A stretch of 64,000 nucleotides of DNA, taken from NCBI GenBank assembly GCA_039591655.1, contig JBDHDE010000004.1:11130-75129 (forward strand), in the 5' to 3' direction. The position numbers and the translations under genes were made by a program. Of this stretch, positions 44,646-49,162 are shown piece after piece. The number at the start of each line of letters is the position of its first letter. Position 1 is the first letter of the stretch. The DNA is from Gemmatimonadota bacterium. Its GTDB lineage: Bacteria > Gemmatimonadota > Gemmatimonadetes > Gemmatimonadales > GWC2-71-9. The notes below the pieces were generated by a model. It did no database searches and was not told the DNA's origin. It worked only from the letters and a program-made list of their open reading frames with translations.

Positions 44646-46007
44646 ATGAGCAACTACGTCTCGCAACTGATGGCGAGCGTCAAGGCGAAGAACCCGGCCG
44701 AGCCCGAGTTTCACCAGGCGGTCGAGGAGGTCGCAGAGTCCGTGCAGCTGGTGTACGAGCGGCATCCCGAATACCGGTCGGCCAAGATCTTGGAGCGGAT
44801 CATCGAGCCCGAGCGTGTGATCCTGTTCCGCATCCCGTGGGTCGACGACCAGGGTGGAGTCCAGATCAACAAGGGCTTCCGCATCGAGATGAACAGCGCC
44901 ATCGGCCCCTACAAGGGGGGCCTGCGCTTCCATCCGTCGGTCAACCTGGGCATCCTGAAGTTCCTGGCCTTCGAGCAGGTCTTCAAGAACGCGTTGACCA
45001 CGCTTCCCATGGGCGGCGGCAAGGGCGGGTCCGACTTCGACCCGAAGGGGAAGAGCGACGCCGAGGTCATGCGTTTCTGCCAGAGTTTCATGACGGAGCT
45101 CCAGCGCCACATCGGCCCCAACACCGACGTTCCCGCCGGCGACATCGGCGTCGGCGGCCGCGAGATCGGCTTCCTGTTTGGTCAGTACAAGCGCATCCGG
45201 AACGAGTTCACCGGGGTGCTGACGGGGAAGGGTATCAATTGGGGCGGTTCGCTGATCCGACCCGAGGCCACTGGGTATGGGGCCGTGTACTTCGCCGCCG
45301 AGATGCTCGGCAGTCGGGGAGAGACCCTGGAAGGCAAGGCCTGCCTCGTATCCGGCAGCGGCAACGTGGCTCAGTTCACCTGTGAGAAGCTGCTCGATCT
45401 CGGTGCCAAGCCCGTGACGCTGTCCGACTCCTCCGGGTATGTCCATGACCCGGACGGCATCGACCGGGACAAGCTCGCGTTCGTGATAGATCTCAAGAAC
45501 GTCCGGCGGGGTCGCATCAACGAATACGCCGACAAGTTCAAGAGCGCCACGTACACCAAGGTCGACGCCAAGCAGGACCACAATCCCCTGTGGAACCACA
45601 AGGCCGAGTGTGCGTTCCCGTCGGCCACCGAGAACGAGATCAGCAAGAAGGACGCCGATAACCTCTTGAAGAACGGCGTCTACGTGGTGTCCGAGGGCGC
45701 CAACATGCCCACGGTCCCCGAGGGTGTGGAGTTGTTCGTGGACAAGGGCATCCTCTACGGACCTGGGAAGGCGGCCAACGCCGGCGGGGTGGCCGTGTCC
45801 GGCCTCGAGATGGCGCAGAACAGCATGCGGTACGGCTGGACCCGTGAGGAGGTCGACAACCGCCTGCGCTTGATCATGAAGTCGATCCACCAGGCGTGCG
45901 TAGAGACCGCCGACCGATTCGGCATCAAGGGGAACTACGTCGTCGGGGCCAACATCGCTGGCTTCCTGAAGGTGGCCGACTCGATGCTGGATCAGGGGGT
46001 CGTCTAA
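44646..46007 (+). CDS. gdhA: Glutamate dehydrogenase (NADP-type GdhA family)
   Basis: [56 protein letters not shown]. Confidence 0.96.
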
Positions 46008-46072
46008 TCGGCCCCCTGGCTCCCCAGGTGACGGTCGACTGTCGACCAGCTTAGGATTTCCTTGTAGGATGT

Positions 46073-46105
46073 GGCTGTGGGGAGGAGCCCCTCCTCCCCA
46101 CAGCC
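46073..46105. promoter_or_regulatory. Perfect 15-bp inverted repeat between gdhA and the receiver/ATP-grasp gene
   Basis: GGCTGTGGGGAGGAG-CCC-CTCCTCCCCACAGCC. Confidence 0.6.
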
Positions 46106-46129
46106 GGTGCCCGCTGCGGGGAGATCCCG

Positions 46130-49100
46130 ATGGGTCCAGAGAGTTCGGGGGAGATACGACACGCAGAGTACCGGAGCCGGCAGAGCCGGTTCCAGTACCT
46201 GATGTCATATCACGTCCAGGACATCCTGCTCGTCACCAGCCTCTACGACTCCTTCATCCTGTCCGAGGACGGCAATCTCGGTGAGCTGATCCTCACCGAG
46301 TTCCTCGATCTCAACCTGCGGCACTCGCCCGAGCTCACCCACGTCTCGACCGGCGAGGGGGCCCTGGCGCTCGCGACCGAGCGGCGACGGTACGATCTCA
46401 TCATCTCCAGCCTCAATCTCGGCGACATGAACGTCCTGGAGTTCGCCGAGAAGCTCAAGGCAGCCGGCCTCGACACGCCGGTCGTGCTCCTGGCCTACGA
46501 TGCACGCGAGCTCACCGACTTCGCCGCCAACAACGACATCTCCGGGCTGGAGCGGGTCTTCCTCTGGCAGGGCGATGTGAAGATCCTGCTGGCCATCGTG
46601 AAGTACATCGAGGACCGCAGGAACCTCCGGCACGACACCGGGGAGGCGGGCGTTCCCGCCATCATCGTGGTGGAGGACAACGTCCGGTACTACTCCTCGT
46701 TCCTTCCCGTGATCTACAGCGAGCTCATGCTGCACGCGCACAACCTCATGCCCGAGGGTCTGAATCGCGCGCACAAGCTCATGCGGATCCGGGCGAGGCC
46801 GAAGATCCTGCTCTGCGAGACCTACGAGGAGGCGTGGGGGTTCATCACCGACTACCCAGACGAGATCCTCGGGCTCATCTCCGACATCGAGTTTCCGCGC
46901 GGTGGCAGGTTCGATCCGCTCGCCGGCGTGGCGTTGGCGAAGGAGGTCCGGGCGCTTCGGCATGACATCCCCATCATGCTCCAGTCAAGCAAGCCCGAGA
47001 ACGAAGAGCTCGCGCATCAGGCGGGTGCGTCCTTCCTGCTAAAAGACTCCCCCGTCCTGCTTCACCAGCTGCGTGACTTCATGGCCGACGGTTTCGGGTT
47101 CGGCGACTTCGTGTTCCGGCTCGCCGACGGGACCGAGCTGGATCGGGCGCAGGATCTGCAGGGGTTGATCGAGAGGCTCTGGACGGTGCCGGCGGAGAGC
47201 ATTGCGCACCACGCGGCCGGCAATCACTTCTCGCGCTGGCTCAAGACCCGCACCGAGTTCTCTCTCGCGGAGAGTCTGCGCCCCCGGCAACTGTCCGATT
47301 TCGGAGGCGTCGAGGAGCTGCGCCACTACCTCATTCGCTCCATCGAGCAGTACCGGCGGGAGCAGAATCGCGGGGTCGTGGTCGATTTCGAGCGGGAGCG
47401 CTTCGATGGCTCGGTGCCGTTCACCCGCGTGGGTTCGGGGTCGATGGGGGGCAAGGCCCGCGGTCTGGCATTCGTGAATTACCTGCTCAAGGACGCATAT
47501 GCATTCACGCAGTTCCCGGGAGTGCGCATCAATGTTCCCCCGTCGGTGGTGCTGGGTACCGACATCTTCGACGACTTCCTGGACCGGAATGACCTGCGTG
47601 ATTTCGCCATCGAATGTGACGACGACAGGAAGATCCTGAAGCGCTTCATCGAGGGGCGTTTCCCTCCGGCGGTCAAGCGGGACCTGGCGGTCTTCCTACG
47701 GCACATGCGGCATCCCCTGGCAGTACGATCGTCGAGCCTGCTCGAGGACAACCAGTACCAGCCCTTCGCCGGGATCTACGAGACGTTCATGCTGCCGAAC
47801 AACCGCGGCGATCTTAACACGCGGTTGAAGCGCCTCGTCGCCGCGATCACCAAGGTATACGCCTCCACGTTCTCCTCGCACGCCAAGGCATACCTGGATG
47901 CTACGCCGTATCGGCTCGAGGAAGAGAAGATGGCGGTGGTGATCCAGGAGATGGTGGGCGCGCCGCACGGTGGAGTATTCTATCCGGATTTCGCCGGTGT
48001 GGCGCGGTCCCATAACTACTATCCCACGGCGCCGTGCAGGTCCGAGGACGGCATCGCGGCAGTGGCGCTGGGACTCGGCCGGACGGTGATGGATGGGGAG
48101 CGGTGCCTCCGGTTCTGCCCTCGATACCCACGGCATGTACTGCAGTTCTCCTCCGTGCAGGAGTTCCTGAGCTACTCACAGCGGGAGTTCTGGGCGCTCG
48201 ACCTCAGCAGGGAGGGACGCGACCCCCGCGGGGGTCACGGCCGTGACGATGAGCGAATGATCCGGCTCGGTCTGGAGCACGCCGAGCAGCACGGGACGCT
48301 GCAGGCCGTTGGGTCGACCTACTCCGACGAAAACGATGCGGTGTACGACGGCTTGTCACGCCCTGGTGTACGGCTGGTGAGCTTCGCGCCGGTCCTCAAG
48401 CATCAGCTCTTCCCGCTCGCCCAGGTCCTCGACTACCTCCTGGAGTTGGGCGAGCAGGGCACCAGCGCGCCCGTGGAGATCGAGTTCGCCGTCAATCTCT
48501 CCACGCCCGCCGGACAGCCCAAGGACTTCGGCTTCCTCCAGATGCGACCACTGGCGGTCACCCGGGAGTTCGAGGAGCTGAAGATCGGCGATGTGCGGCG
48601 GGAGGACCTCGTGGTGGAGAGCCCGTGCGTTCTCGGCCACGGAAGGATCGGGTACATCCGTGACGTCGTGGTCATCGACTACCACCGATTCGAGCGCTCG
48701 ACGAGCCACGAGGCCGCCGCTGAGGTCGCGAGGCTCAATGCCGAGCTCAAGGCGAGTGGGACTCCGTACCTCCTGATCGGCGTCGGTCGGTGGGGTTCCG
48801 TGGACCCTTGGCTGGGGATCCCGGTGACCTGGGACCAGATCGCGGGGGTGCGGGTGATCGTCGAGGCGGGCTTCAAGGATCTCCGAGTTACGCCGTCCCA
48901 GGGGACACACTTCTTCCAGAACCTGAGCTCGAACAACGTGGGCTACTTCACGGTCAACCAGGATGCCGACGAGGGGTTGGTGGACTGGGATTGGCTGGCC
49001 GGGCAGCAGGCGGTGAAGGAGATCCGCAACGTCCGCCACTTGAGATTTGATGAGCCCCTCGTGATCACCATGAACGGCAAGACCAATAGAGGGGTGATCT

Positions 49101-49162
49101 TCAAGCCGGGCGCGGCGGCCCGCAACGACGTGGCAGTCGACAGCCTGGGAGCTGGACCCTAG
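46130..49162 (+). CDS. Receiver-like domains fused to a PEP-synthase/PPDK-type nucleotide-binding domain and a putative phospho-His domain
   Basis: IVVEDN...ISDIEFP...LQSS...LLK receiver; GGKARGL, AVRSSSLLED, FAGIYET, VVIQEMV, GLG, IEFA, LQMRP ATP-grasp motifs; SQGTHFF near the C-terminus. Confidence 0.85.
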   Translation: MGPESSGEIRHAEYRSRQSRFQYLMSYHVQDILLVTSLYDSFILSEDGNLGELILTEFLDLNLRHSPELTHVSTGEGALALATERRRYDLIISSLNLGDMNVLEFAEKLKAAGLDTPVVLLAYDARELTDFAANNDISGLERVFLWQGDVKILLAIVKYIEDRRNLRHDTGEAGVPAIIVVEDNVRYYSSFLPVIYSELMLHAHNLMPEGLNRAHKLMRIRARPKILLCETYEEAWGFITDYPDEILGLISDIEFPRGGRFDPLAGVALAKEVRALRHDIPIMLQSSKPENEELAHQAGASFLLKDSPVLLHQLRDFMADGFGFGDFVFRLADGTELDRAQDLQGLIERLWTVPAESIAHHAAGNHFSRWLKTRTEFSLAESLRPRQLSDFGGVEELRHYLIRSIEQYRREQNRGVVVDFERERFDGSVPFTRVGSGSMGGKARGLAFVNYLLKDAYAFTQFPGVRINVPPSVVLGTDIFDDFLDRNDLRDFAIECDDDRKILKRFIEGRFPPAVKRDLAVFLRHMRHPLAVRSSSLLEDNQYQPFAGIYETFMLPNNRGDLNTRLKRLVAAITKVYASTFSSHAKAYLDATPYRLEEEKMAVVIQEMVGAPHGGVFYPDFAGVARSHNYYPTAPCRSEDGIAAVALGLGRTVMDGERCLRFCPRYPRHVLQFSSVQEFLSYSQREFWALDLSREGRDPRGGHGRDDERMIRLGLEHAEQHGTLQAVGSTYSDENDAVYDGLSRPGVRLVSFAPVLKHQLFPLAQVLDYLLELGEQGTSAPVEIEFAVNLSTPAGQPKDFGFLQMRPLAVTREFEELKIGDVRREDLVVESPCVLGHGRIGYIRDVVVIDYHRFERSTSHEAAAEVARLNAELKASGTPYLLIGVGRWGSVDPWLGIPVTWDQIAGVRVIVEAGFKDLRVTPSQGTHFFQNLSSNNVGYFTVNQDADEGLVDWDWLAGQQAVKEIRNVRHLRFDEPLVITMNGKTNRGVIFKPGAAARNDVAVDSLGAGP

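Follow-up and report, generated by a model that had tools for sequence, protein, structure and literature searches.

Bacteria bring ammonium into biomass by two gates, one of which is glutamate dehydrogenase (GDH). To our knowledge, little is known about the post-translational control of bacterial GDH apart from OdhI/GarA in actinobacteria. Other nitrogen proteins are controlled covalently by GlnE and GlnD: these are large, signal-controlled enzymes that transfer nucleotidylyl groups by means of a Pol-beta fold, and their target is glutamine synthetase or PII. VadK (Rv1127c) of Mycobacterium tuberculosis has been described as a pyruvate phosphate dikinase (PPDK) that lost its phosphoenolpyruvate (PEP) domain; it autophosphorylates His422, is dead as the H422A variant, and pulls down the neighbor-encoded methylcitrate synthase and dehydratase, for which control by binding was proposed (PMC13400623, EMBO Rep 2026). 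The present analysis concerns a 1010-aa protein, called X here, whose gene lies directly downstream of a GDH gene (gdhA) in a stretch of 64,000 nucleotides from a Gemmatimonadota bacterium (assembly GCA_039591655.1, contig JBDHDE010000004.1, positions 11,130 to 75,129 of the forward strand). This whole stretch, with a G+C content of ~67%, is referred to as the window. X joins two receiver lobes to a dikinase-type catalytic module, and its gene is paired with one clade of gdhA across seven phyla.

Domain Architecture of X

The gene order given by an earlier reading of the letters of the window (the sequence-only reading) was confirmed, with a spacer of 122 nt between the two genes:

44646..46007, + strand: gdhA, 453 aa, NADP-type family-I glutamate dehydrogenase, the conserved partner gene of X
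46130..49162, + strand: X, whole open reading frame (ORF) with ATG start, receiver-dikinase-like protein of 1010 aa

GdhA contains the Pfam domains ELFV_dehydrog and ELFV_dehydrog_N, scores 743.5 bits against the NCBIfam model of NADP-specific GDH (NF006929, cut-off 536), and is ~65% identical, as estimated from the alignment, to the GDH of Corynebacterium glutamicum (5gud/5ijz). The anatomy of X was worked out from two sources, its aligned full-length homologues (28 sequences, 50-83% identical) and an AlphaFold2 model (pLDDT 81 and pTM 0.62 for the whole protein). From the N-terminus, X consists of a pseudo-receiver, a receiver, a DUF5752-like domain, an intact ATP-grasp and a His-bearing end domain:

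46205..46645, + strand: REC1 pseudo-receiver, residues ~26-172, Ser93/Ser94 at the phospho-Asp place
46646..47095, + strand: REC2 receiver, residues ~173-322, with E182/D183, D252 (codon 46883-46885), S286 and K305
47096..47419, + strand: DUF5752-like domain, residues ~323-430, ~100 aa, strongly conserved
47420..48559, + strand: PPDK_N-type ATP-grasp, residues ~431-810, with GGK442, R533-S-S-S, E597-E-E, Q606, E783/E785 and Q804
48608..49114, + strand: predicted C-terminal phosphohistidine-type swivel domain, residues ~827-995, with GxGRWGS (884-890) and SQGTH927FFQN

The motif DLIISS (residues 89-94) had been read as the mark of an atypical first receiver with Ser at the phospho-Asp place, and the same place is occupied by Ser or Thr in 28/28 aligned homologues. 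Because the phospho-acceptor Asp is thus replaced in X and in all 28 of these homologues, REC1 is regarded as a pseudo-receiver. Its match to Pfam Response_reg is sub-threshold (27.9 and 25.5 bits vs 30.2; E 1.5e-5; residues 66-124), and it has (beta-alpha)5 secondary structure in the model. REC2, which had been predicted to keep the acidic pair, Asp252, Ser and Lys, gave no Pfam match and no PDB sequence match when searched alone. By comparison of profiles, however, 30 REC2 homologues could be aligned by hhalign to 20 genuine receivers of the same genome (probability 88.7%, E 2.6e-6, 77 columns), an alignment in which D252 coincides with the phospho-Asp and K305 with the conserved Lys. E182, D252 (within ISDIEF, encoded at 46877-46894), S286 and K305 are invariant among the 28 homologues and D183 is at least 90% conserved. 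REC2 therefore possesses the acidic pocket, acceptor Asp, Ser, Lys and, in the model, the (beta-alpha)5 fold of a receiver, as had been anticipated. Moreover, the tandem lobes were matched by Foldseek to PleD (9g85 and 1w25, E 5e-7 to 5e-6).

The segment behind the receivers had been described as a helical linker. The segment is present; it is not a mere linker, being a conserved domain of ~100 aa above the cut-off of DUF5752 (PF19027; residues 339-414, 24.4 bits vs 23; 32.5 bits and E 7e-8 when searched alone), in which F324, G325, F327, F329, H361, S368, W370, K372 and R374 are invariant. No HisKA or HATPase_c domain was found in X by Pfam at E <= 0.1, and X is thus not a histidine kinase of the classical kind.

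The full set of ATP-grasp motifs noticed in the sequence-only reading is borne out by a match to PPDK_N (PF01326; residues 438-818, 124.9 bits vs a cut-off of 27, E 5.7e-36). The closest structures found by Foldseek were those of rifampin phosphotransferase (RPH; 5hv3, E 4.9e-12), PEP synthase (PEPS; 2ols, 1.8e-7) and PPDK (5jvl, 2.3e-6), with HpeI also close, and a PDB profile search likewise returned RPH (5hv6, E 1e-7). The motifs are invariant in the 28 homologues and kept in 22/22 paralogues that are ~30-40% identical.

On the other hand, X lacks any PEP/pyruvate or rifampin-type substrate domain. The PEP/pyruvate TIM-barrel domain PEP-utilizers_C (PF02896) was not matched by Pfam at E <= 0.1, and the barrel would have no room; X ends ~15 residues past the His domain. 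Nor does a large substrate-binding domain lie between the end of the grasp (~810) and the start of the His domain (~827), which are joined by a linker of ~18 residues. The NCBIfam models of PEP synthase, RPH and PigC/RedH match X at the ATP-grasp core only, with 20-58 bits vs cut-offs of 598-1350; the PEPS models reach at most 58 bits (cut-offs 598-1063), RPH 25.9 bits (cut-off 999) and RPH/PRK06241-type models 20-58 bits (cut-offs 850-1063). The same genome has its own canonical PPDK of 875 aa with PPDK_N, PEP-utilizers and PEP-utilizers_C (281 bits). These results agree with the earlier statements that X contains neither a pyruvate barrel nor HisKA/HATPase domains and is not a normal PEP synthase.

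A short C-terminal domain with the motif SQGTHFF and His927 had also been noted. The motif and the His were confirmed (SQGTHFFQNL is encoded at 48896-48925, with the His927 codon at 48908-48910); the domain is not particularly short, with a length of 186 aa. When it was modelled alone with 41 homologues, confidence was high (pLDDT 91.6, pTM 0.90). A comparison of this model with 48,161 representative chains by VIA-align, a search independent of Foldseek, placed phosphohistidine domains in 7 of the top 8 positions, and in a second listing they made up 13 of the top 14. The top matches were the RPH His domain (Z 6.7, 112 residues, rmsd 3.3), the PEPut domain of Bacillus stearothermophilus pyruvate kinase (Z 6.7), the phosphoryl-carrier domain of PPDK (Z 6.2-6.6) and Enzyme I N-domains (Z 5.5-5.9), so that the fold check suggested for this domain points, at middling Z values, to a swivel domain. 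The seven phosphohistidine rows of the first listing were one each from pyruvate kinase and RPH, two from PPDK (Z 6.4 and 6.2) and three from Enzyme I (Z 5.5-5.7). Foldseek on the His domain alone gave no match at E <= 1e-3; its weak rows were for the most part LD-carboxypeptidase, chaperonin apical domains, PPDK and RPH, all of which we take to be swivelling beta/beta/alpha folds in SCOP, together with unrelated rows such as GPX4. The swivel match is considered credible because it is consistent and because the same domain accompanies such ATP-grasps in known dikinases.

In the model, a strand and a loop lead into a helix whose N-terminal end (N-cap) is occupied by His927, and the catalytic His of PPDK presumably occupies an equivalent helix-start site. 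The relative position of His927 in the aligned range, 0.62, is also taken to match that of RPH His825. His927 is invariant in 41/41 homologues with identities down to 36% (a set that excludes row L078, whose coordinates contained a stop) as well as in 22/22 distant paralogues. Conservation had been proposed as a check on both phosphorylatable residues, and His927 and Asp252 both proved invariant.

Linkage of X with gdhA

The genomic context of X was examined in a set of 30 related loci (50-84% identity to X) from metagenome-assembled genomes of seven phyla, namely Gemmatimonadota, Acidobacteriota, Planctomycetota, Latescibacterota, Krumholzibacteriota (Krumholzibacteriia), Ignavibacteriota (Ignavibacteriales) and Bacteroidota. 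A gdhA gene lies directly upstream of X on the same strand in 26/30 loci, and its product is 76-91% identical to the GdhA of the window. Among the four remaining loci, the DNA of L004 and L008 starts within X and that of L021 reaches 321 bases upstream, which leaves L027 as the only one of the 30 with enough upstream DNA but without gdh. No other neighbor from the window is conserved near X beyond close relatives (at most 9 loci). The gdh synteny that had been put forward as a cross-phylum check thus holds in seven phyla.

A more detailed view was obtained from an even sample of 301 Bacteroidota genomes, of which 63 match X at E <= 1e-30 (51 with near full-length X and 12 with only ~30%-identical paralogues). 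The 29 best loci were examined with 1.5-kb flanks: in 21 of them X directly follows a gdhA-type gene, and in one more (L042) such a gene ends 1.4 kb upstream of X. Similar proteins thus do occur beside gdh genes in this phylum, as the sequence-only reading had suggested. For a more distant clade (34-42% identity to X), 5/10 loci have gdhA next to the X-like gene, three of them in divergent orientation. The linkage thus survives rearrangement, which argues for function rather than operon inheritance. In addition, a GDH2-type gene whose product is 42-46% identical to the second GDH of the window is found directly downstream of X in 11/29 Bacteroidota loci, GDH2-type relatives are also near X in L013, L016 and L023, and some Acidobacteriota loci have one beside X. 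As such relatives often adjoin it, X is often flanked by two different GDHs.

Repeated modules were also observed. Three Bacteroidota loci (L052, L056 and L057; genomes G158, G246 and G014) show the order gdhA-X-gdhA with a second copy of X 4-7 kb away, and tandem gdhA-X repeats occur in G102, G150, G042, G106 and G270. The two GdhAs of the tandem modules are ~66% and ~79% identical to that of the window. The gdhA-X-gdhA loci with their nearby second X fit a tandem duplication of the module.

Co-occurrence is strict in one direction. A GdhA (E <= 1e-80) is present in 51/51 Bacteroidota genomes with full-length X vs 49/250 others, counts that are inflated by the kinship of the genomes, and every GdhA with at least 75% identity to that of the window (31 proteins) comes from an X-bearing genome. 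In two X-less Bacteroidota genomes (L105, L106), no 3-kb gene was found downstream of gdhA. Moreover, in a maximum-likelihood tree of 65 GdhAs, the 34 X-linked sequences from seven phyla, termed class A (a class defined by identity), fall on one side of a branch with support 97/87, separate from 19/20 GdhAs of X-less Bacteroidota. X is tightly paired across phyla with one clade of gdhA. Within Gemmatimonadota, X is patchy (15/151 genomes, 12/82 genera), and this, together with the 76-91% identity of GdhA across phyla, suggests that the two-gene module moves horizontally.

Several residues mark the X-linked GdhAs against 20 unlinked ones: H23, S32, V36 and R44 near the N-terminus, R424, F425 and G429 near the C-terminus, and further T245, S326, Y371, the region 318-332 and a three-residue insertion (N313-P314-L315). 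These positions are candidate contact or acceptor sites and are offered as a lead only. A predicted complex of a GdhA monomer with the His domain of X alone scored 0.00 against a mark of 0.32, which speaks neither for nor against binding.

Wider Family and Receiver-Less Paralogues

The family is large: an exhaustive HMMER search with X yielded 5292 cluster representatives with E <= 1e-3, of which 1343 have E <= 1e-30, and most of the top 150 matches align end to end with X at 32-59% identity. Database names of these relatives include "histidine kinase", "CheY-like chemotaxis protein" and "PEP/pyruvate-binding domain-containing protein", and the automatic cluster names of the Atlas are "Phosphoenolpyruvate synthase family protein" and "Response regulator". 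DUF5752 is seen by Pfam in a minority of family members (13-17% in some clusters). Literature searches brought up no publication that deals with the X family or with a dikinase coupled to GDH.

The catalytic module also occurs on its own, in paralogues from Bacteroidota and Ignavibacteriales. The short ones (~580 aa) consist only of the ATP-grasp and the His domain; the long ones (931-1073 aa) have an N-terminus of ~340 aa without assignment and, in 6/7 scanned, a C-terminal NTP_transf_2 nucleotidyltransferase domain. All 22 paralogues keep GGK, RSSSxLED, GxGRWGS and S-x-G-[TS]-H-F-F. Short and long genes are adjacent in 8/8 loci (L109-L116), and in six of these an ORF of 427-429 aa is directly upstream of the short gene; in L115 the pair follows gdhA-X instead, and L110 is cut by the contig end. 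An ORF of 428 aa also stands beside the long paralogue in L117-L119. (The loci L109-L119 belong to genomes G062, G134, G198, G126, G190, G046, G110, G094, G034, G170 and G242.) All five of the 427-429-aa ORFs that were scanned (L109, L113, L116, L117, L119) are Glu/Leu/Phe/Val dehydrogenases, and the other four were judged to be of GDH type by size and position. A recurring Bacteroidota operon thus comprises a 428-aa dehydrogenase, a ~580-aa short paralogue and a ~1063-aa long paralogue with NTP_transf_2.

As judged from sequence, this operon is a second, receiver-less GDH-linked branch of the superfamily, and together with X it implies at least two pairings of the ATP-grasp/His module with GDH-type enzymes, one with receivers and one without. 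By analogy, the nucleotidyltransferase domain of the long paralogues recalls GlnE/GlnD and would be in keeping with a nitrogen enzyme under covalent control. The paralogues of a third group (~775 aa; L120-L122) show no GDH linkage.

A Possible Link to Bacteroides

According to the title of a 1996 Bacteroides paper by Baggio and Morrison, one or more trans-acting genes downstream of gdhA are required for GDH activity, and a downstream fragment of ~3 kb is said to have restored GdhA activity in Escherichia coli. In Bacteroides thetaiotaomicron, a supplementary expression table lists BT_1970 as glutamate dehydrogenase, BT_1972 as "phosphoenolpyruvate synthase" and BT_1973 as glutamate dehydrogenase, and gives ~3,500-14,500 counts for BT_1973 vs roughly 90-300 for BT_1972 (PMC4595636). 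BT_1972 beside BT_1973 has the arrangement expected for an X homologue beside gdh, and by annotation and position it may be one; it may also be the "trans-acting gene downstream of gdhA" of 1996. BT_1971 was considered as the X homologue as well and rejected, as it is a catalase.

Proposed Mechanism and Competing Explanations

The reading preferred here is that X is a receiver-gated, His-loading relative of the PEP-synthase/RPH dikinases which acts on the co-encoded GDH, either by phosphotransfer or by phospho-dependent binding, and its chance of being right is considered about even. The ATP-grasp would move a phosphoryl group from ATP to His927 as in PPDK and RPH, and by analogy with these enzymes it would be the beta-phosphate that is transferred, with release of AMP and Pi. 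Phosphorylation of D252 by another kinase or a small phosphodonor would rearrange the tandem receivers as in PleD, and this rearrangement would gate the catalytic module. The His domain would then phosphorylate GdhA or, when itself phosphorylated, bind it. The output would be post-translational control of GdhA activity, following a logic like that of GlnE on glutamine synthetase or of VadK on methylcitrate synthase. A bolder version, which is put forward tentatively and is rather doubtful, would make X the first protein-directed dikinase: under receiver control it would phosphorylate GDH via His927 and so switch it on or off, a GlnE-like covalent switch across at least seven phyla, gut Bacteroides (BT_1972) included, which would explain the 1996 finding.

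Several observations weigh against the preferred reading. The match of the end domain to a swivel fold is middling, as its Z values of 5.5-6.7 lie in the range (Z < 8) that, according to the warning of the tool, can reflect a common arrangement; Pfam PEP-utilizers (PF00391) was not found in X at E <= 1, and hhalign of the end domain against the swivel domain of the genome's own PPDK gave a probability of 0.4%. A histidine kinase gene is not part of the conserved cassette. No gdh is present in the examined DNA of 7/29 and 5/10 Bacteroidota loci, and 49 sampled Bacteroidota genomes have GdhA without X, which means that GDH as such needs no X. The comparison of clade-specific GdhA residues gave no clear acceptor residue. 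Finally, DUF5752 was not found in B. thetaiotaomicron, taken as control genome, and the homology of BT_1972 to X is putative; the DUF5752 result means little, because Pfam sees this domain in a minority of members.

X may instead be a small-molecule dikinase. The DUF5752-like domain or inserts of the ATP-grasp would then bind a metabolite of the GDH node (e.g., 2-oxoglutarate, glutamate or an effector), which would receive the phosphoryl group of His927, and this product rather than X would affect nitrogen metabolism. The closest characterised relatives (RPH, PEPS, PPDK, HpeI, PigC/RedH) all phosphorylate or activate small molecules, and the DUF5752-like domain is pocket-like in its wealth of invariant polar and aromatic residues (H361, N365, H366, S368, W370, K372, R374). 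This possibility is nevertheless judged unlikely: no domain of X resembles any known acceptor-binding domain, the short GDH-linked paralogues keep the His motif without any accessory domain, and the partner is one specific GdhA clade and not a pathway. The sequence-only reading had named, as one of its options, a self-contained His-to-Asp relay, in which His927 would phosphorylate Asp252 of the same protein and the receiver conformation would bind or release GDH or another target. His927 and the full receiver pocket are both invariant, the cassette travels without a histidine kinase gene, and some database records call family members "histidine kinase", all of which a relay could explain. However, the receiver-less paralogues keep both the His domain and the linkage to a GDH gene, so that the His must have an acceptor other than a receiver there, and for the same reason the receiver of X is more likely an input than an obligatory phosphate acceptor. 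The relay is therefore not supported over the alternatives, and its likelihood is considered low.

It is also conceivable that the linkage reflects nothing but operon hitch-hiking, with X as an enzyme of general carbon/nitrogen or stress signalling that acts on something other than GDH. The Bacteroidota loci without gdh would be expected under such a scenario, and in some genomes (e.g., G190) the best GdhA and X are on different contigs. Persistence of the linkage through changes of orientation and a divergence to 34-42% identity, its independent recurrence for paralogues with another GDH type, and the strict co-occurrence (51/51) make hitch-hiking improbable. As for the view that X simply forms PEP from pyruvate as an ordinary PEP synthase or PPDK would, the Atlas cluster name and the PPDK_N match are what would be cited in its favor; with PEP-utilizers_C lacking, NCBIfam PEPS scores far below their cut-offs and a complete three-domain PPDK elsewhere in the genome, it has practically no chance of being correct. 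The sequence-only reading would have fallen with an end domain of another fold, an unconserved His927, a lack of gdh linkage elsewhere or simple PEP synthesis; none of these was encountered, and "dikinase-derived signalling kinase coupled to GDH" remains the most fitting way to describe X.

The gdhA-X Spacer and Neighboring Genes

The spacer between the two genes has a pronounced predicted structure:

46008..46129, + strand: gdhA-X spacer, 122 nt, with a 16-bp perfect hairpin (core 46075-46107)

An outer helix encloses the hairpin and pairs UUUCC with GGGAG just 5' of the X start codon. The minimum free energy of the spacer is -70.6 kcal/mol (z -4.65), a value equalled by 0/200 shuffles, and alignment folding of 12 Gemmatimonadota spacers indicated a conserved structure of 16 pairs, 5 of them with compensatory changes. 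No Rfam match was obtained in 43900-49600, spacer included, and no T-tract terminator was seen in the spacer; a promoter/terminator consensus scan found no promoter, its sole terminator-like site being inside gdhA. The hairpin could terminate most gdhA transcripts and mask the ribosome-binding site of X. Across X loci, the spacer mostly measures 85-165 nt and is near zero in two Planctomycetota. Among the 18 runs listed as carrying the stretch, no RNA run was found, as all 18 are DNA metagenomes.

Another dehydrogenase gene is located four genes downstream of X:

52178..53560, + strand: second, GDH2-type Glu/Leu/Phe/Val dehydrogenase, 460 aa, Pfam ELFV_dehydrog

This protein is ~31% identical to GdhA, and in the window its linkage to X is loose. 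Between X and this gene, at 50327-52107, lie a queE-like radical-SAM gene, queC and queF (7-deazaguanine/preQ1 synthesis), which are kept near X in close relatives only (8 loci). Other neighbors (38478-43328 and 49159-50316) encode a DUF4953 met-zincin with DUF5117 (831 aa), RmuC, an endonuclease/exonuclease/phosphatase-family protein and an Omp85-family barrel, and they too are linked to the gdhA-X pair in close relatives only.

Comparison with Known Systems

If X modifies or binds GDH, a new regulatory layer of nitrogen assimilation would be added, and the 1996 "trans-acting gene(s) downstream of gdhA" would probably be identified. Automatic annotations in wide use, namely "PEP synthase", "histidine kinase" and "CheY-like chemotaxis protein", would also be corrected.

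Like GlnE/GlnD, X appears dedicated to one nitrogen-assimilation enzyme, and the long GDH-linked paralogues carry NTP_transf_2; chemistry and target differ, and GlnE/GlnD have no homology to X. PleD shares the tandem of a true and a degenerate receiver ahead of an enzymatic output, whereas in X the order is reversed, with the pseudo-receiver first, and the output is a dikinase-type module and not GGDEF. With PpsA and PPDK, X has in common the PPDK_N ATP-grasp with all nucleotide motifs and, by predicted fold and with middling Z values, a putative swivel-type His carrier; it differs in that the PEP/pyruvate TIM barrel is absent and sequence comparison reveals no TSH motif. RPH (5hv1, 5fbs, 5fbu) and PRK06241-type dikinases provide the best match of the ATP-grasp and the joint best match of the His domain, which is C-terminal in both. 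However, RPH has a rifampin-binding domain of ~430 aa between grasp and His domain, where X has its ~18-residue linker, and it has no receivers.

VadK is the nearest parallel in organization, as both proteins combine an ATP-binding domain with a phosphohistidine domain (a predicted one in X), lack a PEP/pyruvate domain and are encoded beside metabolic enzymes. The resemblance is one of design and does not by itself imply common descent. VadK is described as a protein of ~490 aa that evolved from PPDK, with no receivers in that description, and its partners are methylcitrate enzymes (PMC13400623). X, by contrast, has two receivers and a DUF5752-like domain, an ATP-grasp nearest to the RPH/PEPS type, a His domain that has diverged beyond Pfam detection, and GDH as partner. 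Thus, X is likely to represent an independent lineage of dikinase-derived regulators, predicted to autophosphorylate on His, with receiver input, a cryptic His domain and a GDH partner. Should X indeed modify or bind GDH, it would join VadK as a second and independent example of a dikinase that has come to regulate neighboring enzymes.

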